A DNA stretch of 64,000 nucleotides from Bryobacterales bacterium (GCA_965237575.1 CBDEGI010000004.1:2953746-3017745); one strand, 5' to 3'; shown: positions 11,676 through 25,339, counted from the stretch's first letter. A program made the numbers and translations. The notes: a model not told the origin generated them from the sequence alone.

Positions 11676-11950
11676 GCCCGGATAAACTTGGAGCAGTTAC
11701 GGAGTACTGGGTCTACCAGCGATCCCGTCTGCGTTGGAAACGTTGAGGTTATCGTGTCCGAGTTGATAGTCTCGAAGAACCATGCGAAGCATCGGCTGGC
11801 CGACGAAGGCTAACGTGTCGCCCGAGCCCCACGCAAGATGCTGCCGTACAAGTGATTGTTAAGTGTGCCTGCGGCGAGCCTCCCACGCCGCTTGAAGGGC
11901 GCACCGGGATCGATTGCCGGATGTGACTGGAGCATCCGGGATTGGCCCAA

Positions 11951-12206
11951 ACTGGGGTATGCACTTGACTCCCGAAGCCCCAAGGTCTAGTATCCGGGCT
12001 CTGGAGGACTATTCGCGCACGCTGGGGAGTTTCAAGAGCGCTTCGCCTTCAGGTTTCAAAGTCAACCGCTGCCGTCCCCCCGCGGGGCGCAATGAGCGGC
12101 GGCTATAGGACCCACGACCGCTGCCCGATGGCCCCTCGAGGGTGCGGTCGCCGCAGTCGCCGACCACAAGGTGTGGGGTCGTCGGGAGTCAAGTGCATAC
12201 CCCGAT
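11951..12206. mobile_element. MITE copy A (~256 bp, non-autonomous)
   Basis: 25-bp TIR ACTGGGGTATGCACTTGACTCCCGA vs reverse complement ATCGGGGTATGCACTTGACTCCCGA (2 mismatches); flanking direct repeat (T)GGCCCAA at 11943-11950 and 12206-12213. Confidence 0.88.
11965..11993 (+). promoter_or_regulatory. sigma70-type promoter inside MITE A left end, overlapped by an NrdR-box-like 16-mer
   Basis: TTGACT (11965-70) -17 nt- TAGTAT (11988-93); CCCCAAGGTCTAGTAT at 11978-11993. Confidence 0.55.
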
Positions 12207-12311
12207 GGCCCAATTGTTCTTACATCGCCGTCCCGCATGCCAGAACCCCAAAAGGCATTCCAAGAGGGCGGCGGCGGTCCAGCGGTGGCCCTTCCGGTGT
12301 GTGAATCTCCG

Positions 12312-12839
12312 TCACTTTACGGTGAAGAGTACGGAAGCGCTATGGTTCTCCCACTCCAGCGTGAGCTTGCCCTCATCGCTCAGTGTGTATTTCAGGTTCT
12401 CTACCATTGTCGACGGCTTGCTCATGGTCATCTTGACGCGGCCGAGGTCCTGCGCCTGGTCATAGCTCAGCCCCCATTGGCCGGTTTGCTTGTTTAGGAT
12501 GAGCTCCCAGTTGTTGGGGTCCGCCAGATTCACGAATAGCGTGTAGTCGCCACTCGGTACCGCTAGGCCACCAATGTCGAGAGTGGCATCGGTATGAAAG
12601 GCGGTGGCGGCGTTTGCGCCCGCCCTCCAGACCGGATAGGCACGGTCTTGAGCGATTCTCCCGTCCTTGCCAAAGAGTTTTCCTTCTCGGCCTCGCACCC
12701 TCGGTGACGAGTAAGTGATAGTGATCGTGTTGCCGCCGATTGTCACCGTTTCCGTTGCCCCTGGGCTTTGTTGAGCTGGGGCGAGACTCGCGGTGCCAAG
12801 GAGCGCGCCGATTGAGATGCAGATCAGAAGATCCTTCAT
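12312..12839 (-). CDS. DUF2911 domain secreted protein
   Basis: Signal peptide; SP..T..ITYSSPRVRGR, WRAGANAAT, NKQTGQWG, LEWEN. Confidence 0.88.
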   Translation of the reverse strand: MKDLLICISIGALLGTASLAPAQQSPGATETVTIGGNTITITYSSPRVRGREGKLFGKDGRIAQDRAYPVWRAGANAATAFHTDATLDIGGLAVPSGDYTLFVNLADPNNWELILNKQTGQWGLSYDQAQDLGRVKMTMSKPSTMVENLKYTLSDEGKLTLEWENHSASVLFTVK

Positions 12840-12980
12840 GTCCGGGTCCCTCCTAGTCTTGACCAGGATTTCCATTTTGGCATCCTGACGCCGAGAGCAT
12901 ACACCCACTCTGGCCCCCAGCACAACCCGGCAGGATCGGGGGATGAGCGAGGACCGGTTGCTCGTGAATCTCTGTTGTCG

Positions 12981-13009
12981 GGAGTCGGAGCGCCATTGTC
13001 AAGTTAACG
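12981..13009 (-). repeat. right arm of imperfect inverted repeat (partner 10211-10239)
   Basis: GGAGTCG-N8-TTGTCAAGTTAACG. Confidence 0.55.
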
Positions 13010-13137
13010 ACGCAAAGGCGGTTTGCCTCGAAGATCGTCCGAGGGTTCTCCGCCTCGGCAAAGACACGGGCCTTCTTCCAGCCGGCGATAGGGTATCGTT
13101 TCGGCCTCGGCCGAGCGGCTGCTAGAATGCACCCGAG

Positions 13138-14541
13138 ATGACCCTTTGGTTGGTGCTGCTTCCGGCGTTGCTTTTAGCCCCTACCTTGCATGGCGCGGAC
13201 TGGATGCGCTTTCGGGGACCGAACGCCACGGGCGTGGCTGCGGGGCCGATCGTTGAGCGGCCTTCGCTTGACGGAAATTTGCTTTGGAAAACGCCGTTGC
13301 CGACAGGGCATTCTTCCCCGGTGGTCAGCTCCAAGAAGATCTACGTCACGGCGGTTGAAGACGAAAGACTCTATACGCTGGCGCTCGAGCGGGAAACCGG
13401 AGAGATCCTGTGGCGTAGGGAAGCGCCTCGCCCGCGCCGCTCGGAACTTCATGAGAACAACAACGCCGCCTCGCCTACGCCGACGAGCGACGGCGAGAAC
13501 GTGTATGTATTTTTCGGCGATTTCGGGTTGCTGAGCTATGGCCCGGACGGCAACGAGCGTTGGCGCGTCCCGCTGGGGCCGTTCGTCAACATTCGCGGCA
13601 TGGCGTCGTCGCCGGTGGTGGAGAACGGGAAGGTCTTCCTGCTGTTGGACGACGACAGCGGCCGTTCGTTCCTGATCGCCGTCGACGCTGAGACGGGCCG
13701 GGAGTTGTGGCACGCCGACCGCAAGGAGTTCGGCAAGGGGTTCTCGACGCCGGCCGTGTATCGTCCCGCGCATACGCCGGCGCAATTGATCGTACCGGGG
13801 TCCTTCGCGCTGCTGTCGTACTCGATGGAAACAGGCGAAGAACTGTGGCGGGTCGGCGGACTGTGCTGGCAGGCCAAGGCGGTGCCGCTGATCGACGACA
13901 AGCGCGCCTATTTCAACTGTCAGGGGGCGGCGACGGATGCGATGGCCGGCCGGTATTCGGACTTCGCGGGCGCGTTGAAACTCATGGACGCCAACGGCAA
14001 CGGCGCTCTGGATCAGGACGAATTCTATGAGAGGCGCCGCGGCAAGTTCCCCGAGTACGACTTCAGCAAGGACGGCGTGATGGACGAGCGTGAATGGAAC
14101 TTCTTCGTGCGGCGAATGGCGACGCGGCCCGGCATTTTCGCGGTGCGCCTGGGAGGGCTCGACGAGGTAAGCGACACCCGCGTGGAATGGGCCCAAGAGC
14201 GAAGGATGGGGAATGTGCCGTCCCCGCTGCTGTATGAGCGAGTGATCTACTCCGTGCGCGACGCGGGTATTCTGTCAAGCATCGACGCCGAGACAGGAGA
14301 GATTCTCAAGCAAGCGCGGCTGCCGCAAGCGATGGGCGCCTACCGTGCATCTCCGGTCGCCGCCGACGGCAAGCTGTTCTTGTTGGACATGGAGGGCACG
14401 CTCACCGTGGTGAAGGCCGGGGGCCAATGGGAAGTGTTGCACAGCTTGGCGCTCGACGAGGGCGGTAGCGCGACCCCGGCCATCGCCGACGGTCGGCTCT
14501 ACGTGCGTACCCACCAGAACCTCTATTGCTTCGGAGAGTGA
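13138..14541 (+). CDS. PQQ-like beta-propeller (BamB-like) secreted protein with EF-hand-like insert
   Basis: DWMRFRGP start, GHSSP/ASPTP/SSPV repeats, DANGNGALD and DFSKDGVMD loops. Confidence 0.85.
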   Translation: MTLWLVLLPALLLAPTLHGADWMRFRGPNATGVAAGPIVERPSLDGNLLWKTPLPTGHSSPVVSSKKIYVTAVEDERLYTLALERETGEILWRREAPRPRRSELHENNNAASPTPTSDGENVYVFFGDFGLLSYGPDGNERWRVPLGPFVNIRGMASSPVVENGKVFLLLDDDSGRSFLIAVDAETGRELWHADRKEFGKGFSTPAVYRPAHTPAQLIVPGSFALLSYSMETGEELWRVGGLCWQAKAVPLIDDKRAYFNCQGAATDAMAGRYSDFAGALKLMDANGNGALDQDEFYERRRGKFPEYDFSKDGVMDEREWNFFVRRMATRPGIFAVRLGGLDEVSDTRVEWAQERRMGNVPSPLLYERVIYSVRDAGILSSIDAETGEILKQARLPQAMGAYRASPVAADGKLFLLDMEGTLTVVKAGGQWEVLHSLALDEGGSATPAIADGRLYVRTHQNLYCFGE

Positions 14542-14705
14542 AGCGCGGGCTTAGCGGCTGCCGGCTCGCTCGGCGCGCTGCTTGATGTTCCGGAAAAACC
14601 CTTGGGTGGACGTTGTAGATGATAACGTCCGACCAGGTATCGTTCGCAAAAAGTCAATCTGGGCCTGATGGCCTTCGCCAAGCTCCGTAGCCATGGATTC
14701 TCTGA

Positions 14706-15880
14706 TCACCTTTCGAAAGAGTCGCGTAGCGCAGGCAGATGTTTGAGGGCGTTCTGGTAGTAGATTTTGCGGATCACCTCATCGGGCAGATAGGCACCGT
14801 GGATCGCCCAGCGTCCCTGTAGGGGCGCCCCCAGCGGCGACAGCATTTGCGCCGGGTGGTCGAAGTACTCATCGTCGGTCTCGAAATATCGCCAGTGCGG
14901 TGTCCAGAATCGCTCGACTTGGCGGCTCGGATTGCCATCCGATCCGAACAGCACGCGGTTCTGGTATTTGATCAGGAACGCGCGGCCGGAGAAGGGCTGC
15001 CGGCCGAGATCCTGGATACGGGCAGAGACTTCCACATCGACGTTGGGAAACTTGTCGAGCATTTCCCCGACGCGCTTCAGATCGAAGGAAATCATCGCGA
15101 TGTGTGCGTTCACGAAGCGCGTGTTGGGGTGTGCGGCGAACATGTTCTCGCGATGCTCGAAAATCTCTTCAATGCCAGGCGGCCGCTGCCGTAATAGTTC
15201 CCGTCGACGTCGCTACGCCACTGACCGGCCTCCCAACGTTCGTTCGCCGGACCGATCGGCTGGAAGCGAGCAACCGAGTCGCTGACGTGGATCATCACGG
15301 GCTTGCTGTGGCGGGCGCACATCTCCCAGACGGAGTCCAGACGCGGGTCATCACATTGAACGTATGTGCCGTCCGCGTTTTGAACTTCGAGACCGAGCCG
15401 TTTGCTGATCTTGAGTCCCGCGGCGCCGGCTCGGAAACAACGATCGAGTTCGGCGGCGGCCTGTTCCGACCAACCTGGCTCGTCGATGCCTTCCCAATCG
15501 ATGCGGGCGAACTGCAGGAATCGGTCGTTGTAGGGTTCGCTCGCCTTCATGTTCTTGTCGAAGGTCTCGCCATAGCCGCCGTCCATGTTGCAAATGACGC
15601 CCACGCCTGCCTGGTCCATCTTGGCGATCATCGCCTCATAGTCTTCGAGGGTTTGCATCCTGCGCCCGTGGAAGTGAAAGTCAACGGTGGGATACTTAGC
15701 CTTCTCGATGGGTGTTCGCTTGACGACAAGTACCGAATCCGGCATCGGCCCCTGCTCCGGCGCCGGCTTGAAGTCCGGGTGATTGGGAAACTGAAGCGTA
15801 GCCCCGGTCTGTTCTGAAGGGGTATGGGAACAGCCGATGGCGAAAACGAACAGCACCAACTTGAACCATCGTTGTTTCAT
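14706..15880 (-). pseudogene. amidohydrolase family lipoprotein, split by one frameshift near 15180
   Basis: Lipobox, DFHFH, GLKISK, MIHVSD in the 5' ORF; VNAH, LFGSDG, KIYYQNA in the 3' ORF; frames join as YYGSGR/PGIEEIFEHRENMF. Confidence 0.8.
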
Positions 15881-16065
15881 GGACCTCTCTCCTCTGCGCG
15901 AGCCGGCTGCGGGTCTGTCCCCTGCCACCGCCGGCCTAGAGTCTAGAGCGGCTGGTGTGGTCTGTCAATCTGGCCGCCGCCTGCTGGATGAGATACGATC
16001 ACGGGGCAATCGACGATCCGGCTACCGCCGGACGAGTCGTCCGCCAAAATGAGTGGAGTCGCGTC

Positions 16066-16773
16066 ATGAAAGGACAGATATTCTTGCACGCAGCGGCTTG
16101 GCTTCTAGCCGGTTCCGTCTGCGTATTGCTGCGGTGCGGCGACAGCACGTCCCCTGCCGACTCGGAACACCAAACCTGGACGTTCGACCGGCTTGACGAA
16201 ATCGGGGGGCACCGGCCGACAGTTTTGGGCGATCCGCGTGTGATCGATACGGCGCTCGGGAAAGCAATCGAGTTCGACGGGGCGGATGATGCCCTCTTTT
16301 TCGACGTCCACCCGCTCGCCAATACCGAGACGTTCACCTGGGAGGCCGTTTTTCGTCCCGATGGCGGCGCGGTTGAGCAGCGCTGGTTTCATCTCAGCGA
16401 AAACCCGGCGACCGGTGCTGACCCGGAGAATCGCATGCTATTTGAGATTCGAGTAATCGACGACCAGTGGTGTCTCGACGCCTACGTTCAGTCGGGTGAC
16501 GCTCGCAAGGCACTGCTCGATCGCAGCCACCTCCAGCCGCTCGGCGACTGGTATCATGTGGCCGCGGTCTATGACGGCCGCGAGTTTCGCAGCTACGTCA
16601 ACGGCGAGTTGGACGGCGCGGCCGAACTTGACCTGCCTCCGCAAGGCGAGGGGCGTTCTTCGGTCGGCGTGCGAATCAACAAGGTTTACTACTTCAAAGG
16701 AGCTGTCCGCCAGGCTCGCTTCACGCGGCGGGCGCTTGCGCTGGACGAGTTTTTGAAGTTGCCGAAACCGTAG
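16066..16773 (+). CDS. LamG/concanavalin A-like domain protein
   Basis: AIEFDG, FTWEAVFRP, WYHVAAVYDGREFRSYVNG, FKGAVRQARF. Confidence 0.85.
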   Translation: MKGQIFLHAAAWLLAGSVCVLLRCGDSTSPADSEHQTWTFDRLDEIGGHRPTVLGDPRVIDTALGKAIEFDGADDALFFDVHPLANTETFTWEAVFRPDGGAVEQRWFHLSENPATGADPENRMLFEIRVIDDQWCLDAYVQSGDARKALLDRSHLQPLGDWYHVAAVYDGREFRSYVNGELDGAAELDLPPQGEGRSSVGVRINKVYYFKGAVRQARFTRRALALDEFLKLPKP

Positions 16774-16774
16774 T

Positions 16775-17020
16775 AGCCAGGGCGAGAGGTTCGAGGGCCG
16801 GTTCACATAGTACTCGGACCACACCAGCAGCAGACACCCATCTTTCAACGGGAAGATCTGTTGGTGGTCGTGCCGAGGATTCTCGGCCGTCCAAGGGCAG
16901 AGGCTGAACAACTCGCCGAGTCCCCCCTTGGGCTGCGCGGGCCCGGGTGTTTGCGAGTGCAAGCGCACCTGATGACAGCGCAACGAACCTTCGCCGGTCG
17001 ATGCCTTGATAGCTCTTCAT
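16775..17020 (-). pseudogene. 5' fragment of Tat-exported sialidase-like gene (frameshifted, truncated)
   Basis: DRRRFVAL Tat leader then, in another frame, CPWTAENPRHDHQQIFPLKDGCLLLVWSEYY (sialidase-like N-terminus); ends at the convergent LamG gene. Confidence 0.55.
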
Positions 17021-17029
17021 TGCTGCTTC

Positions 17030-17359
17030 CTCGCGTTGACGGTGACCGTCGTAGCCGTCGAGACCACCACCGGCCCCCGCTGGAACGTCTTGAAGGACGA
17101 CGAACCCACCGTCACTCGGTACCGGCCCACCTGCAGGTTGGGCATCAAGAAGTTGCCCGAGTCTCGTAGATTCGGTTACTGACTCCAGGCCGGTTTCGAG
17201 GTTGAGAATCCTGATCTCGGCCCCGGGAATTACGGCGCCGGTCGTATCCTAGACGGCGCCTGTGATCGCCCCGAAATTCCCTTGCCCCATGGCCACCGGA
17301 GAGCTGATCCACATGCCAAAGAGCACCAACAACAACCATTTGCCTGAATCGATCTTCAC
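17030..17359 (-). pseudogene. N-terminal fragment of TonB-dependent receptor (carboxypeptidase regulatory-like domain)
   Basis: Signal + GQGNFGAITGAV*DTTGAVIPGAEIRILNLETG, frameshift, GNFLMPNLQVGRYRVTV..FKTF; barrel missing. Confidence 0.7.
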
Positions 17360-17360
17360 C

Positions 17361-18866
17361 TTAGAACCCGCTAGGTTTTTGTTTCGAGTTGACCGAGCTA
17401 CGGAGCGCCCCGTACAAAAGGTCCTCCGAGCAAACCGTCAGCGGTGAAAGCAAGCTGGTGACATATCCTGTGAAGAAAGTCACGACCGTTCCGATGCCAC
17501 AATACCACGACCAAGAGATGTCCGTACTGGTCATGACCATTACGACGCTTGCCATTCCCAGTACCGAGCCGATGACGACGCCGGCGGCCCCGGCCCGCTT
17601 TACGAAAATGCCGAGAAGAAACATCCCAAAAAGAGCGCCGGTAATCACGCTGCCAAGCTTGATTCCCGCGGTTATGACCGTTCCAAATTGAAGTACGAAA
17701 AGAGCGGCGACAAAACTGAAGCCGCCCCAGAAAAGTGTCAGCAGACGGGCGCGACGAATCCAGGCTTGCTCACCGGCGTTGTCTGAGAAGTGGAGCTGCC
17801 AAACGTCGACGAGGGTTACCGTTCCCATCGAGTTCAGCATCGAGCTGAGCGTTGACATTCCCGCGGCAACTGCGGCCGCGATGAATGCGCCCTTGAAGCC
17901 CGTGGGCAGCGCCGCCATGACGAACGCCGTAAAGACTCGATCGGGCGGGGTACCCGGCGGTACGCTGCCCGGCTGCAAAGTATTATGAGCGAATAGAACG
18001 ACGCCTACGAAAAGAAAGATGATCCACAGGCCTAGGATGCCGACGCTGCTGAGTAGAATCGTCCGGCGGGAGTCCCGCTGCGACGGCGTCGTCATGTAGC
18101 GCTGAATCAAAACTTGATTGACGCTCTGGTTTCCGGCGTGCCAAAACAGCATGCTCACAAGGGCCGCCCAGAACGTAATCTCCGCCGTGAAATCGAACGA
18201 GAAGTTGAACGTGCGCAGTTTGTCATGCTCCGCGGCGGTTTGGATCAGTACCGACAGGCCACCCTCCGTGGTGGAAACGGTGTAAATCAGCAGACCGACG
18301 GGCACGGCGGCGAATACGAAAAATTGGACGACATCGGTCCAGATGACGGCCCTCATGCCACCGATCGACGTGTAAAGTAGAGTCGCGACCAGCAAGATCG
18401 CGACGGCCGCCTCGTAAGAGATTCCAGTTGCTTCCGACATGACGAGACTCGGTGCGGCGATCACTGTGCCTAACACGAGCGCCGTTTCGATCTGGAAGAT
18501 CAAGCTGGCGTACGATTGAACGCACGAGTTGAATCGTCTGCCCAGGTACTCGTAGGCAGAGGTGATCTTGAGGTGGCTGTAGAAAGGCAGGAAGATGACG
18601 GCTGCGATTAGCGCCGCCAACGGCAGCACCAGGTACATCTGCAGATAGGTCAGATCCCCCGCGAAAGAAAGCCCGGGCAGACCGATCAGGCTCTTGGCGC
18701 TGATGCCGGTGGCGACCATCGAGGCCGTGGCCGCCAGCCAAGGAACTTGGCGATTCCCGAGAAAGTATTCGGAGGTGGAAGACTGCCTACGGCGGGAGGC
18801 AAGCAGCCCCACCAGCGTTATGCCGATCACGTAGACAGCAATGATGGTGTAGTCGAGCAGCGACAT
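17361..18866 (-). CDS. sodium:solute symporter (SSS family)
   Basis: LDY..EYFLGNR, SAYEYLGRRF, GGMRAVIWTDVVQ, QRY, AAGMSTLSS; about 13 TM segments. Confidence 0.92.
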   Translation of the reverse strand: MSLLDYTIIAVYVIGITLVGLLASRRRQSSTSEYFLGNRQVPWLAATASMVATGISAKSLIGLPGLSFAGDLTYLQMYLVLPLAALIAAVIFLPFYSHLKITSAYEYLGRRFNSCVQSYASLIFQIETALVLGTVIAAPSLVMSEATGISYEAAVAILLVATLLYTSIGGMRAVIWTDVVQFFVFAAVPVGLLIYTVSTTEGGLSVLIQTAAEHDKLRTFNFSFDFTAEITFWAALVSMLFWHAGNQSVNQVLIQRYMTTPSQRDSRRTILLSSVGILGLWIIFLFVGVVLFAHNTLQPGSVPPGTPPDRVFTAFVMAALPTGFKGAFIAAAVAAGMSTLSSMLNSMGTVTLVDVWQLHFSDNAGEQAWIRRARLLTLFWGGFSFVAALFVLQFGTVITAGIKLGSVITGALFGMFLLGIFVKRAGAAGVVIGSVLGMASVVMVMTSTDISWSWYCGIGTVVTFFTGYVTSLLSPLTVCSEDLLYGALRSSVNSKQKPSGF

Positions 18867-19119
18867 GGCCTTGCCGTCTCTACAAGTCCATCAGGTTATC
18901 TAGCCATCCATCTACGCCCCAACGCCCCAACGGCACGGATCACCGGTGGAGGGAGGACCTAGAGAGCGGGTTTTTCAGGAAGGAGCACTCCGGGGAGCTG
19001 AACGTCATGAGTCTCATCCCAGGCGAATTTCCAACTTGGATCTTGCGCGCCTCAACTCTACGCCCCTCCGTCTCCCGAATGCAAGGATTCTTTTGACCCC
19101 AGGCAGGCACGCACTGGGC

Positions 19120-19265
19120 CGGGTATTGCGACGTGACCGCCCATCCCACGGAGGAGTGGACCGCAGTAGATTCGAGAGGCATTTCTCTGGGAGACGGCTC
19201 CGTGTTTCCTACTGCGCGACCGGGACAGGATCTATGGAGGGGCCTGTTGGGACTGCGTGGCGACA
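19120..19265 (+). mobile_element. decayed integrase-core (rve) transposase remnant
   Basis: Across a frameshift reads VTAHPTEEWTA-IREAFLWETAPCFLLRDRDRIYG, resembling rve-type transposases. Confidence 0.6.
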
Positions 19266-19491
19266 CCCGCCGACTGAGAGTGTTGAAGGCCCTCCACGGC
19301 CGCGAACGGCGCATCTGCTCAAGTCGCAGCGATCGGTCTTCTGGAACTCGCTCACGTCGTCGCGAGAGCTTCGTGCCCCGTGGCTTCGAGCAGGGCGCGG
19401 CGGGTCTCGGCGGTGGCGTGTACAGTACAATGGGCTTGCATCGTGCCCAGACAGCTTGGAACATGTCCTACGACAGCCGAAGGGACAATAC

Positions 19492-21090
19492 ATGAAACAT
19501 GCCATTCTCGTGACCTTGCTGTTCATGCTGCCTGTGGTTGCCCGCACTGATGAGCCCATCCACATCGGCTCGCGGCGAGAGTTGTTCGTGGACGACTATC
19601 TCGTTGATCGCCTCGTGGGCAAAGCGGAACTGCGGTTGCATCAGCCCACGCCGCGGGGAGTAGCGCTCGTACATGATGCTCCCTGGGAAGGGAACGCAAC
19701 CGCATACCACAGCATTTTCAAGGATGGCGACCGCTACCGCATGTACTATCGTGCCTGGCGGCTGACCGTCGACTCGGACCAACTCAATCAGGGCATCGTG
19801 AGCCTTTGCTACGCCGAAAGCCGCAACGGAATTCACTGGAAGAAGCCGCAACTGGGGCTGCACGAGTTTCAGGGCAGCAAGGCCAACAACATCGTCATTT
19901 CGAGCGAGATGGCCGTGGATCATCAAGTGACGATAGGAGGTCCGGCCGTCTTTCGGGACCAGAATCCGAACGCGCCGCCGGATGCTAAATACAAGACCTT
20001 CCTGATCTCCAAGAGCCCACTCGGCATGCGGCCATACAAGTCGGCCGACGGCATCCACTGGTCGCCCATGACCGAAGAGCCGACGATTACCAACGGTGCG
20101 TTCGACTCGCAGAACCTCGCGTTCTGGGACCCTACTCGTGGTGAGTATCGGGCATTTTGGCGGTATTTCACGAAAGGGACCACCAACGACAAGACATGGA
20201 AGCCGGGCGGTGTGCGTGGCATCCGCACTGCCACATCAAAGGACCTGCGGCGTTGGAAGAACGAGGCCGATCTCGCCTATGTCGATTCACCCTCGGAGCA
20301 ATTGTATGAGAACGGAGTTGCGCCTTATCACCGCGCACCACACCTGTTGATTGGATTTCCGGTTCGCTATATCGATCGGGCCGCTGCACCATCCACCTCG
20401 GACAGCAGTGGCCGCGACGCCGCTGGTGCGGAGCGGACTCGCGCGTGGCCGGCGTCGCTACGGGCGCTGCCGGAGCTTCAACAGCGCGAAGCGCGGGCGG
20501 CGGCGAGCGAACGCTACGGCAGTGCTTTAACCGAAGGTTTGCTGATGGCCAGCCGCGACGGGGCTACATTCAAACGTTGGAACGAGGGCTTTCTGCGGCC
20601 TGGAATCGAACGTCCGGGTACGTGGAACTACGGACAGCAGTTCATCGGCTGGCATTTGGTAGAGACCGCGTCGCAACTTGCGGGAGCGCCCGACGAACTC
20701 TCGCTTTACGCGACCGAGGGCTACTGGACTGCGCGGCAGGGAACCTCGTTGCGGCGCTACACGTTGCGGCTGGATGGCTTCGTTTCGGTGCAGGCTCCGA
20801 TGAGTGGCGGCGAACTCATCACGAAGCCACTGACGTTCACGGGCAAGTCGCTTTCGCTCAACTTCGCCACGTCGGCGGCGGGCAGCCTACGCGTCGAACT
20901 GCAAGACGCGAGAGGAAAAGCTCTGCCAGGCTACACGCTCAACGATTGCGACGAGTTGTTTGGTGACACGGTTGACCGGACAGTCACCTGGCAAAGCAAG
21001 AGCGACCTAGCGGCCTTGATTGGTCACGTCGTGCGCATGCGATTTGTATTGCGCGACGCCCATCTGTTTGCGTTTCAATTCGGCGAGTGA
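19492..21090 (+). CDS. secreted glycoside hydrolase-like five-bladed beta-propeller protein
   Basis: IGSRRELFVDD, PWEG, YRMYY, YAESRNGIHWKKP, FDSQN, LRLDGF, FGD C-terminal motif. Confidence 0.75.
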   Translation: MKHAILVTLLFMLPVVARTDEPIHIGSRRELFVDDYLVDRLVGKAELRLHQPTPRGVALVHDAPWEGNATAYHSIFKDGDRYRMYYRAWRLTVDSDQLNQGIVSLCYAESRNGIHWKKPQLGLHEFQGSKANNIVISSEMAVDHQVTIGGPAVFRDQNPNAPPDAKYKTFLISKSPLGMRPYKSADGIHWSPMTEEPTITNGAFDSQNLAFWDPTRGEYRAFWRYFTKGTTNDKTWKPGGVRGIRTATSKDLRRWKNEADLAYVDSPSEQLYENGVAPYHRAPHLLIGFPVRYIDRAAAPSTSDSSGRDAAGAERTRAWPASLRALPELQQREARAAASERYGSALTEGLLMASRDGATFKRWNEGFLRPGIERPGTWNYGQQFIGWHLVETASQLAGAPDELSLYATEGYWTARQGTSLRRYTLRLDGFVSVQAPMSGGELITKPLTFTGKSLSLNFATSAAGSLRVELQDARGKALPGYTLNDCDELFGDTVDRTVTWQSKSDLAALIGHVVRMRFVLRDAHLFAFQFGE

Positions 21091-21383
21091 CGACAAATGG
21101 CTATCCGCTTGGGGGGTATGACCTTTGATGCCGCCCGAAAGTCTCGGTGCTGGTGTAGAGGTCTTACCGTAAGCCTGGCAGCGGTATCGACGACGCCTTC
21201 CCCATTTCGTCCGGTAGAAGCCGTGACGGACACTCTTCCGGCGGCGGCTTTTCCCGCCACTGGGCAGTCCCTGTTTGCCAACTAGGACTCTTCATTGCTC
21301 TTGGACCGGACGGCAGCAGGACTGGTTGCCCCGGAATTGGACCTCAAATCCTAGCAGCTACGGGAGTTACAATTGGGTCGCCA

Positions 21384-22834
21384 ATGATTGATAGCGGAAG
21401 CACCTCGGATGACGCTACCATCTTCTCGTCGATGGCCGAGGGTTCCATCAGTCGATGCCGCCTCCTTGGGAAGCTCATTATTGAATTCACGCCCGGGCCC
21501 TTGGCCCGATGTTTCTCGCTTGCCGTTTTGCTTCTACTGCCCGGCCGGTTGGGTCCCTACGGAGATCTGCCGAAGCCGGAACCGCCGAAGATCCCGGTAG
21601 AGCAGATCGTGCAAGAAGCGGTCGAGGCCGCCGAGTCTTTGCCGCGCCTACACAGCCTTCTGATCACTTGGAAAGACGAACGCCTCCTCGAGCGCTACTT
21701 TCACGGAGCTCGTGCATCGAGCGCCGCGAACGTCAAATCGGTATCGAAAAGCGTGATTTCCGCACTGGTCGGTATCGCGATCGCGCGCGATCTGATCCCT
21801 GGGGTGGATGCTTCCATCGCGCCCTATTTCCCGAACGTTCTCGGCCCAGGATCGAATCCCCAAAAACGGACGAAGTGGGGTATCCATTTGACTCAGGTGA
21901 CCACAACATACTGTGGTTGGCCATTGGCGGCCCCCGGAAAGGCTTGCCGATAGCACCACGTTTCCAAGCCTGCGATGGCCATGGCGCGTGCGTAATCCTT
22001 GATCGGCCCGAAACGCAGCCTCGTGGCCCAATTGCCTGTAGACCGGCGTCTGGCGCCCCAGGGTGCATTCTGGGTGCAGTGTGCTGGCGTCCATGGATCG
22101 ACCAAACCACAACGCCTAGGGGCTACCTGAGTCAAGTGGATACCCCATTACGGACGATTCAGATCGAAGACTTGCTGACGATGAGGTCCGGGCTTGAGCC
22201 CACCAGCGGGAGGAATTTCGGAGCCTGGGTGGCGAGCCGGAGTTGGGTACGGAACGCCTTAACTCGCCCGCTTATTCGGCTCCCTGGAACGGAGATGGAC
22301 TACAGTACGGGCAACACGCATCTGCTCTCGGCGATACTCACCAAGGTTAGCAAGAGAAGTACCTGGGCGTTCGCTCAAGAGACGCTCGCGAAGCCTCTCG
22401 GCTTCGACTTGGCCAAATGGCCTCGTGATCCCGAGGGCATCTACCGTGGTGGCAACGACATGGAAATGACGCCGAAAGAGATGATGTTATTCGGCAAGCT
22501 CTACCTCAACCGGGGTCGCGCCAACGGCCGGCAAATCGTCCCTGAATCTTGGGTCGATCAGTCTTTCGTGCCACGGGGACGTTCTCGCTATAGCGGGAGA
22601 CTCTATGGCTACGGTTGGTGGATTCGGAGGCTCGGCGGTCGAGCCGTTTATTACGCCTGGGGCTATGGTGGACAGTTCATCTTTGTCGTCCCCGACCTCG
22701 AGGCCGTCATCGTGACGACTTCTTCGACACAACCCGGCCGGGGCCGTCGCGCCCATCGGGCAGCGCTCTACGACTTAGTCGGGGGAGTCGTTACGAAGCT
22801 GTGTGCAAACCGAGGCAACTCGGCCTGGCTCTAG
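21384..22834 (+). pseudogene. serine hydrolase (beta-lactamase class C-like) interrupted by MITE B
   Basis: SVSK motif in the 5' part; LLTMRSG, YST, AWGYGGQ in the 3' part; removing the element plus one TSD restores QKRTIQIEDLLTMRSG; start uncertain. Confidence 0.88.
21874..22149. mobile_element. MITE copy B (276 bp, non-autonomous)
   Basis: 25-bp TIR AGTGGGGTATCCATTTGACTCAGGT vs reverse complement AATGGGGTATCCACTTGACTCAGGT; 8-bp TSD ACGGACGA (21866-73, 22150-57). Confidence 0.93.
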
Positions 22835-24130: not shown

Positions 24131-25121
24131 CTATTCGCCCATCAGAGCTTTCGCTTCCGCAGCGATCTGACGGACGATCTCGCCGGCGGGTTGGACCCTA
24201 TTCACGAGACCGACGCCTTGGCCGGCATAGAGGGCCATGGAGTCGATATCGCCAGTGGTTTCCTGGTGAGGCGTGAAGCCCATGAAGCGACGGACCTCGA
24301 CCCTCTCCCCGCCAACCGCCGTTGATCCGACCACCGGCTCGTCGGGACGACCCTCGTTCCCACGTGCTTCCTCAGCGAGCCACTGTTCGACGAACGACGT
24401 GCGGAGAACGCGGTGCGGGCATTCGGCCAGCTATAGCCGAAGAGCGTTGTACGGATCGTGTCACCTTCGCGGGCGTCCAGTATCCTCTGCCGATAGACCG
24501 GATGTGTTCTCGCCTCCTCGGCCGCGAGGAACTTGGTTCCGAAAACGGCGCCCTGCGCTCCCAGCGCCAGGACCGCCACTAGCCCGCGGGCGTCGGCGAT
24601 GCCTCCCGAGGCGGTCACCGGCGTGGGAGACACGGCCCCCACGACACGGGGAACCAATGTCAAAGTGGAAACCTCGCCTCTGACGTGCCCGCCCGCCTCG
24701 ACGCCCTGCGCGATGATCACGTCCACGCCGGCGTCTGCTGCGGTTTTCGCCTCGGCGACGCTCCCGACTTGATGAATCACCTTGAGCCCCACCTGATGAG
24801 CAAGGTCCACGAAAGCCGACGCGGGTCACCCCAGAAGAAAGACAGCAGCGGCACACGCTCTTCGATGCACACGGCAACCTGCTCATCGACGTCCGCGGGT
24901 AGCAGCATGTTGACGCCGAAGGGCCGGTCGGTTCGCTCTCGCAGCGCACGGATATCATTCCGCAGGATCTCGGGAGGGTTGCGGCTGAACGACATCAGAC
25001 CGAGCCCGCCGGCCTGGCTGACCGCGCCCGCCAGGTCGGGCCCCGTCACGAAGCCCATCGGCGCACAGAAGATCGGAAATCGAATTCCTAAGAAACTGCA
25101 GAGCGGGGTGTGGAGTCTCAT
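24131..25121 (-). pseudogene. nitronate monooxygenase (2-nitropropane dioxygenase) with two frameshifts
   Basis: PIFCAPM..AVSQAGGLG..PFGVN / AQGVEAGGH..ASGGIAD..GTKF / ALYAGQGVGLV in three frames; shifts near 24815 and 24420. Confidence 0.85.
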
Positions 25122-25339
25122 GGATACCCTCGCTACCAACGGGAAGTCAACTCGGCTGGCGACGGGAAGACTGTTTCCCGTGTCGCGCCGACACAATCCG
25201 CTCCTTCAGTGTGACCACACAGCCTACCGGCGTATTGCCCAACCGCTTTGCTGAAGCGGCCAGGTCGATGCAGCGCCGCATCATTCGTTAGTCGAGGGCC
25301 AGGTCCCGGCCGGCATGGTTTCGACGCGGCCTTTCCGGT

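Follow-up and report, generated by a model that had tools for sequence, protein, structure and literature searches.

Insertion sequences (ISs) of the IS1595 family and their miniature inverted-repeat transposable elements (MITEs) are already known, and the named members ISAcr1, ISRhtr1, ISRama1, ISCsp2, IS1595, ISKpn3, ISEc70 and ISBbi1 have the same size, gene, domains, inverted repeats, 8-bp target duplication and short derivatives as the elements considered here; to our knowledge, there is no biochemistry for this family. In IS1, IS10, IS50, IS30 and IS911, a transposase promoter in the left repeat is shut off by the transposase, or host-factor sites lie in the ends, and transposons are known to respond to the host signals Dam, IHF, DnaA and LexA. 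The ATP/dATP-sensing NrdR is considered to repress ribonucleotide reductase genes only, and we know of no transposon that senses the deoxynucleoside triphosphate (dNTP) pool. In this work, we analysed a 64,000-nucleotide stretch of DNA from a Bryobacterales bacterium (GCA_965237575.1 CBDEGI010000004.1:2953746-3017745; the whole stretch is called the window below) bearing two MITEs, A and B. The terminal repeats of these MITEs and of their autonomous IS1595-family parents contain a 16-bp palindromic box that resembles the operator of NrdR. We found this inner module in no description of the clade, and none is given in the titles or abstracts of the literature searched on IS1595, inverted repeats and zinc.

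Just as in IS1, IS10, IS50, IS30 and IS911, the promoter of the parents lies inside the left inverted repeat, where an overlapping protein site would couple the binding of the end to the control of the gene; unlike the box described here, the sites in those elements are not palindromes resembling the box of a nucleotide-pool repressor. Nor is the palindromic module a property of the IS1595 family at large, as it is lacking in 14 of 20 named plasmid loci. The reading that we consider best, and hold with about even confidence, is that the transposase binds this inner module, which would double as the operator of the left-end promoter.

According to the available text of PMC13584703, the NrdR operator consists of two 16-bp boxes separated by a linker of 15-16 bp (26-27 bp is also reported as bound). 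The positions C4, A6, A8, T9, T11 and G13 of a box are conserved, of which C4, G13, A6 and T11 are critical; the centre is tolerant, the A+T content between C4 and G13 is at least 63%, and the box edges are unimportant to NrdR (PMC13584703). The same text states that NrdR needs both boxes, with neither box 1 nor box 2 being bound on its own, and for the E. coli and S. coelicolor proteins the isolated box is described as unbound in vitro and in vivo (PMC13584703; PMC12051234); a reported single-box NrdR site at topA is doubted in the available part of PMC12051234. Both of these NrdR proteins can recognise boxes of other organisms (PMC13584703). When compared with the operators presented there (E. 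coli nrdAB, nrdHIEF and nrdDG; S. coelicolor nrdAB and nrdRJ; PMC13584703), the element ends have the same 16-bp partial palindrome with C4/A6/A8/T9/T11/G13, the same free positions 5, 7 and 10, and the same overlap with a core promoter. They differ from these operators in having one box instead of two, in having it at both ends of a transposon, and in the degradation of the MITE copies.

Two MITE families and their autonomous parents

The first-pass annotation of the window had pointed out four 16-mers, each located 6 nt after TTGACTC when the element end is read inward, and all four are indeed present in this arrangement. The features are as follows (window coordinates; box scores refer to the matrix introduced below).

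11951..12205, no strand: MITE A, flanked by the 8-bp direct repeat TGGCCCAA at 11943-11950 and 12206-12213
11954..11971, + strand: left terminal repeat of MITE A, outer module GGGGTATGCACTTGACTC
11965..11993, + strand: predicted inward sigma-70-like promoter TTGACT-N17-TAGTAT, derived from the parent IS, with the -10 at box positions 11-16
11978..11993, + strand: left inner module (box) of MITE A, CCCCAAGGTCTAGTAT, 8.8 bits; C4, A6, T11 and G13 kept, A8 changed to G
12164..12179, - strand: right inner module (box) of MITE A, ACCCCACACCTTGTGG, 6.8 bits; T9 changed to C
12186..12203, - strand: right terminal repeat of MITE A, outer module
21874..22149, no strand: MITE B, flanked by the 8-bp direct repeat ACGGACGA at 21866-21873 and 22150-22157
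21877..21894, + strand: left terminal repeat of MITE B, outer module GGGGTATCCATTTGACTC
21901..21916, + strand: left inner module (box) of MITE B, CCACAACATACTGTGG, 14.9 bits; T11 changed to C
22107..22122, - strand: right inner module (box) of MITE B, CCCCTAGGCGTTGTGG, -1.7 bits; C4, A6, T11 and G13 kept, the centre being GC
22129..22146, - strand: right terminal repeat of MITE B, outer module

The 18-nt terminal repeat GGGGTATSCAYTTGACTC occurs four times without mismatches in the window vs. 0.05 occurrences expected from shuffles; a candidate fifth copy at 25113-25130 has three mismatches and no box behind it, looks like a chance match and was rejected. From GGGG to CCCC, MITE A comprises 11954-12203 and MITE B 21877-22146. 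In both cases the direct repeats stand 2-3 nt outside the GGGG, and the exact tips are slightly uncertain; contigs of other copies part from the window sequence at 11950-11953 and 12205-12209, at the boundaries of MITE A. In one Bryobacterales chromosome with more than 50 near-identical autonomous copies (loci L054-L111), the GGGG varies between copies in its first one to three bases, and the true element tips may therefore lie slightly inside the GGGG.

A search of the genome (7.55 Mb, four contigs, 94.6% complete) with up to three mismatches to the terminal repeat revealed 547 ends, which form 254 paired elements and leave 39 ends unpaired. Measured between the GGGG ends, family A accounts for 72 pairs of 244-254 bp and family B for 151 pairs of 259-274 bp; the remainder comprises 12 pairs of other short sizes, 18 of 912-1083 bp and one of 2644 bp. 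The four 16-mers of the window correspond to the left and right end types of the two families (74, 53+16, 147 and 149 copies), and hence the fixed offset of the box is inherited and does not reflect four independent events.

A single gene is present in the copies of about 1 kb; it has 310-317 codons, and its product combines an IS1595 zinc ribbon (PF12760) with an IS1595 DDE domain (PF12762); for the two autonomous types, E-values are 9e-29 and 4e-31 with PF12762 and 2e-13 with PF12760. Just as expected for the IS1595 family, these parents are about 1 kb long with one long frame each, have terminal inverted repeats and belong with an 8-bp target duplication, which is seen at both MITEs of the window. 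The MITEs, in turn, are short and non-coding, share their ends with the 1-kb elements, are flanked by a target duplication and have reached about 72 and 151 copies. Both MITE families derive from IS1595-family insertion sequences whose autonomous copies reside elsewhere in the genome. Arrays of MITEs in head-to-tail order, with neighbours separated by 12-15 nt, are frequent (e.g., contig 4, 1967974-1968817 and 2340794-2341903), which suggests insertion beside a resident end. A third MITE-like element, also small but diverged in its outer repeats, adjoins a family B copy on contig 3 (about 234590-234840) and has two well-kept boxes (19.3 and 14.5 bits).

The promoter-like site of MITE A was called with two sites in the region vs. 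0.0 in shuffles. That the left-end motif of MITE A lies over the -10 of TTGACT-N17-TAGTAT had been noticed in the first-pass annotation, and the same overlap is found in an autonomous parent: IS-B has the same TTGACT-N17-TAGTAT site, and since the GTG start of its transposase is located 8 nt past the -10, the message would be almost leaderless. In the autonomous elements the transposase promoter is present at the left end only and the box at both ends; among the MITE ends, the promoter is retained only by the left end of MITE A, whose box scores 8.8 bits. In IS-A, the transposase frame runs through the right-end box (locus L033, 1085-1102), so that the box doubles as coding sequence for the C-terminal residues. 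In four metatranscriptome runs of one study, the MITE is present as assembled contigs only, with a depth of 600-1500 vs. 4-16 for the flanks. Because the ratio of MITE to flank is close to the copy number, and only assembled contigs are available, this depth is uninformative on the transcription of the MITE or on transcript starts.

The box in comparison with native NrdR operators

The genome bears an intact nrdR (TIGR00244, 185.9 bits) with the zinc ribbon and the ATP-cone (PF22811, PF03477), and nrdR was found in 37 of 41 relatives. The sole reductase gene found is the class II nrdJ, on a contig other than that of the window; searches of the 94.6% complete genome for a reductase small subunit and a class III enzyme found neither. 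Upstream of its nrdJ there are two boxes (16.9 and 10.0 bits), 32 bp apart start to start, the second located between TTGACA and the -10. Among the relatives, nrdJ was found in 37 of 41, and the strict C-A-AT-T-G core is present upstream in 28 of the 30 loci taken. From 48 nrdJ sites of 26 relatives, the genome's own genus being left out, we built a palindromised scoring matrix, on which these training sites range from 9.1 to 20.2 bits. In 25 of the 26 training loci, the two highest-scoring sites upstream of nrdJ are 30-32 bp apart, with one of them between the -35 and the -10. The nrdJ operators of this lineage have the same two-box architecture as described for NrdR in the available text of PMC13584703.

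On this matrix built from real nrdJ operators, the ends of the parents score like true boxes: 13.9 and 15.8 bits for IS-A, 16.5 and 19.6 for IS-B, 16.3 and 16.1 for the 1083-bp type, and 16.7 and 9.8 for the 1048-bp type, so that seven of the eight end types fall between 13.9 and 19.6 and the eighth stands at 9.8. Among 7,469,227 background positions outside the elements, scores of at least 14 bits are reached at 79, at least 16 at 23 and at least 18 at five, several of these being unmasked relics of elements. When the 48-nt ends were shuffled, the observed score was reached in 10 of 20,000 cases for the left end of IS-A and in none of 20,000 for that of IS-B. All six conserved positions are present in 8/8 parent ends and in none of the four MITE ends. 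The likeness of the four MITE ends to the NrdR box, which the first-pass annotation had proposed, is real but uneven (8.8 and 6.8 bits for MITE A left and right; 14.9 and -1.7 for MITE B). Three of these four ends keep all the critical positions, C4, A6, T11 and G13 being present in 15 of 16 cells, and only the left end of MITE A also satisfies the rule of at least 63% A+T. The likeness to the NrdR box is thus real, and it is stronger in the parents than in the MITEs.

The box is also present in related IS1595 elements. The same two-module ends were found in 80 related loci, all of them (80/80) in Acidobacteriota, with transposase identity of 71-93%. Among the Acidobacteriota types, one has both boxes 1 nt closer, and three have a broken central AT with C4/A6/T11/G13 intact; in two further Bryobacterales types (L113 and L119), the right-end box lies 10 nt further inward, i.e., by one helical turn, with the left end unchanged. 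To sample more distant elements, we took 20 named IS1595-family loci out of 150 matching plasmid records. Six of the 20 carry the box at the equivalent place or within about 1 base of it, at exactly 8 nt after TTGAC where this is kept. It is present at both ends in an element of a Legionella antarctica plasmid (18.0 and 16.5 bits), ISAcr1 (17.5 and 7.3), a Tardibacter element (16.0 and 17.1) and a Sphingomonas element (-1.7 and 12.8), and was seen at the left end only in ISRhtr1 (15.2) and a Rhizobium element (10.4); the other 14 loci are without it. As the first-pass proposal would have it, the motif thus recurs in further copies, and among autonomous relatives it holds its offset in Acidobacteriota, Alphaproteobacteria and Gammaproteobacteria, three groups of phylum or class rank. 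Within these groups, an entire IS clade bears at both ends a site that its sequence does not distinguish from a real NrdR box, positioned on the transposase promoter.

We tallied 40 autonomous ends by eye (eight of the genome itself, 22 from 11 Acidobacteriota element types and 10 from named plasmid-borne ISs). The six conserved positions are complete in 34 of 40, and C4, A6, T11 and G13 are present in all 40; the CC at positions 1-2, not needed by NrdR, is conserved too. The box is kept at both ends down to 38% transposase identity, while the adjacent 6-nt spacer changes freely. In a transposase tree of 31 rows, all box-bearing elements belong to one clade of 24 (support 95/94), within which the clade of ISRama1, ISCsp2, Ralstonia, Enterobacter and Methylomagnum elements, the Methylocella element and the Indioceanicola element are boxless. 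Judging by this tree, the box is most simply taken as ancestral to the 24-row clade and lost at least three times. The outgroups (IS1595, ISKpn3, ISEc70, ISBbi1 and others) have only asymmetric, shorter repeats of about 25 nt. In the boxless ISRama1 (L041), ISCsp2 (L043) and Methylocella element (L039), the inverted repeat is extended outward by 12-19 AT-rich nt past the GGGGTATCC block.

Candidate proteins for the box

We infer the identity of the protein that binds the box from the arrangement and conservation of the site. Structurally, each 16-mer forms the inner part of a bipartite terminal inverted repeat of about 40 bp, in which the outer module GGGGTAT-N4-TTGACTC is followed by a 6-nt spacer and then by the 16-bp palindrome CCnCwAnATnTwGnGG. 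Both MITE families inherited this repeat from IS1595-family elements, and the palindrome is an old feature of one IS1595 clade, kept at both ends. Most probably, it is a protein-binding site on which the element itself depends at either end, and the transposase, probably as a dimer, would recognise it jointly with the outer module. The candidate site covers the -10 of TTGACT-N17-TAGTAT at the left end, where binding by the transposase would repress its own gene, which is nearly leaderless. The presence of the box at both ends of every autonomous type (8/8), with the promoter at the left end only, supports this reading, and the displacement of the right-end box by one helical turn in two relatives fits the two modules being read from one face of the DNA. 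The MITEs would then keep only what transposition needs, namely the arms (C4, A6, T11 and G13), the centre having drifted; as MITEs with broken centres have reached about 72 and 151 copies while the arms persist, the centre appears unneeded for mobility. The likeness to the NrdR box would in this case be a coincidence or a similar way of reading DNA. A subterminal transposase site had been named in the first-pass annotation as the alternative to NrdR control, and from the features of the ends it seems at least as likely. If the transposase does bind here, the clade provides a clean two-module end repeat with a palindromic operator, as well as a caution for genome scans, where a lone hit to the NrdR box may belong to a transposon end.

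Several observations weigh against the transposase as the protein concerned. Transposase sites are rarely palindromes. The module is dispensable, given that the boxless nested groups and the distant IS1595 groups all keep the zinc ribbon, and an alignment of transposase N-termini (11 box-bearing, 7 boxless) revealed no residues tracking the box. To see whether the two zinc ribbons share an origin, profiles of 26 NrdR N-termini and 120 transposase N-termini were compared (hhalign), which gave a probability of only 68% over 26 columns, essentially the four cysteines, with the NrdR stretch containing Asp15/Arg17 largely gapped. Furthermore, the match of the parent ends to real NrdR boxes is far above chance by matrix, background and shuffles. 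The fixed (4, 6, 8, 9, 11 and 13) and variable (5, 7 and 10) positions coincide with those of the NrdR boxes in the available text of PMC13584703, and the NrdR rule, with C4, G13, A6 and T11 critical and the centre tolerant, describes exactly what survives in the diverged copies. When compared by eye with Table 1 of PMC13584703, several IS ends differ from experimentally bound boxes at only 2 of 16 positions.

NrdR is the main rival: it would bind the box, repress the left-end transposase promoter and perhaps act at both ends, making transposase expression or end pairing dependent on the nucleotide pool, which we regard as unlikely. Besides the likeness itself, this explanation gains from the presence of an intact nrdR in the genome and in most relatives, from the well-defined operator of the lineage, whose nrdJ boxes the parent ends equal in score far above background, and from the overlap of the box with the -10, just as in nrdJ promoters. 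The critical positions are kept in 40/40 autonomous ends and 3/4 MITE ends, and the module behaves as an add-on that related elements can lose, as would a host-factor site. A tandem of boxes is also found before mraZ (see below), so that the regulon may extend beyond the reductase genes here. The difficulty lies in the number and placement of the boxes. Between -80 and +125 of the 547 ends, no fixed coordinate has a partner box; ten autonomous elements scanned over their whole length have one strong box per end and none 30-32 or 42-43 bp away, and an inspection by eye found none at 21 bp. The ends therefore lack the pair with a 15-16 or 26-27 bp linker, and they lie in transposons and not at reductase promoters, whereas isolated boxes are unbound according to the available texts of PMC13584703 and PMC12051234. 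Even between tandem MITE neighbours, the boxes would stand 60-63 bp apart, which by our estimate does not match the helical phase of the bound linkers (15-16 and 26-27 bp). In addition, promoter control leaves the retention of the right-end box unexplained, the CC at positions 1-2 is conserved beyond the need of NrdR, and any binding to single boxes would let several hundred MITE ends titrate out the repressor. No link of NrdR to a transposase or an insertion sequence appears in the titles or abstracts of the literature searched. Because of the single box per end, the kept right-end box, the kept CC and the tandem spacing out of phase, canonical NrdR control of the element ends appears unlikely.

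To act here, NrdR would require one tetramer to bridge the two single boxes of an element, which are 186-206 bp apart in the MITEs and about 960 bp apart in the ISs, or else the help of the transposase. In its boldest form, the proposal is that a cross-phylum IS1595 clade has one true NrdR box per end and that the ATP/dATP-loaded NrdR tetramer clamps both ends of one element, which we consider distinctly improbable. Should it be true, the promoter would be silenced and the ends held or blocked at a full dNTP pool, and both would be released when the pool falls; this would be the first transposon under a nucleotide-pool sensor and the first NrdR site looping between single boxes. More generally, binding by NrdR, if it occurs, would couple transposition to nucleotide status and turn several hundred MITE ends into a sink or into a mobile collection of NrdR sites. 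As for the first-pass proposal that the parent IS is under NrdR, the box likeness, the presence of nrdR and the conservation of the motif all stood up, but the step from these to control did not, given the single box, the box at the right end and the degraded MITE ends. As for the accompanying idea that MITEs spread NrdR-regulated promoters, they are poor candidates for this, as only the left end of MITE A keeps the promoter, together with a box of 8.8 bits.

There might also be another dimeric factor, of the host or of the element, which binds the palindrome as an accessory of transposition, with the NrdR likeness arising from a partial overlap of motifs. This would agree with the palindrome being an add-on, lost in nested clades, present at both ends and shifted by a whole helical turn; the 1-kb element, however, has no further open reading frame, no other known regulator was found to have this motif, nor are we aware of one, and the ends fit NrdR boxes as closely as true sites do; we think such a factor very unlikely. 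We disfavour still more strongly, as exceedingly improbable, that the 16-mer is functionless, i.e., an inherited sequence plus a -10 hexamer that resembles an NrdR box by chance. The six-position core with an AT-rich interior does occur 818 times in 7.47 Mb, which gives a chance of about 0.3% per 45-nt repeat, and the scan covers very many repeats. Against this, the box is kept at both ends to 38% transposase identity while the 6-nt spacer varies, and the right end needs no -10. The transposase bound to the inner module, with the left-end box as its operator, is the reading that we prefer over these.

NrdR-like boxes upstream of mraZ and the frame around MITE B

The two top-scoring NrdR-like boxes of the genome (19.3 and 20.4 bits, 30 bp apart) do not belong to nrdJ; they are located on contig 2 at 263914-263959 (L037, 415-460), about 170-200 bp upstream of mraZ (L037, 618-1076), where mraZ-rsmH forms the head of the cell-division cluster. 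A pair of boxes 30-32 bp apart is found in the same place in 16 of 29 loci of relatives, and at least one box of at least 9 bits in 27 of 29. The position and recurrence of these pairs suggest that NrdR may also control the division operon in this order; no link between NrdR and mraZ was found in the titles or abstracts of the literature searched. On the same contig, at 134882-135283, there is a second MraZ-like frame with 60% identity over residues 1-134, within an open frame of 323 codons. The recurrent high-scoring GTACCACATCTTG sites were tried as a further repeat and rejected, as they lie in apparent coding stretches of a paralogous gene family.

In the window, MITE B sits within a 441-codon frame (21509-22831) of the beta-lactamase/serine-hydrolase family (PF00144). 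This frame is open across the whole of MITE B, and the PF00144 match covers residues 215-421 only.

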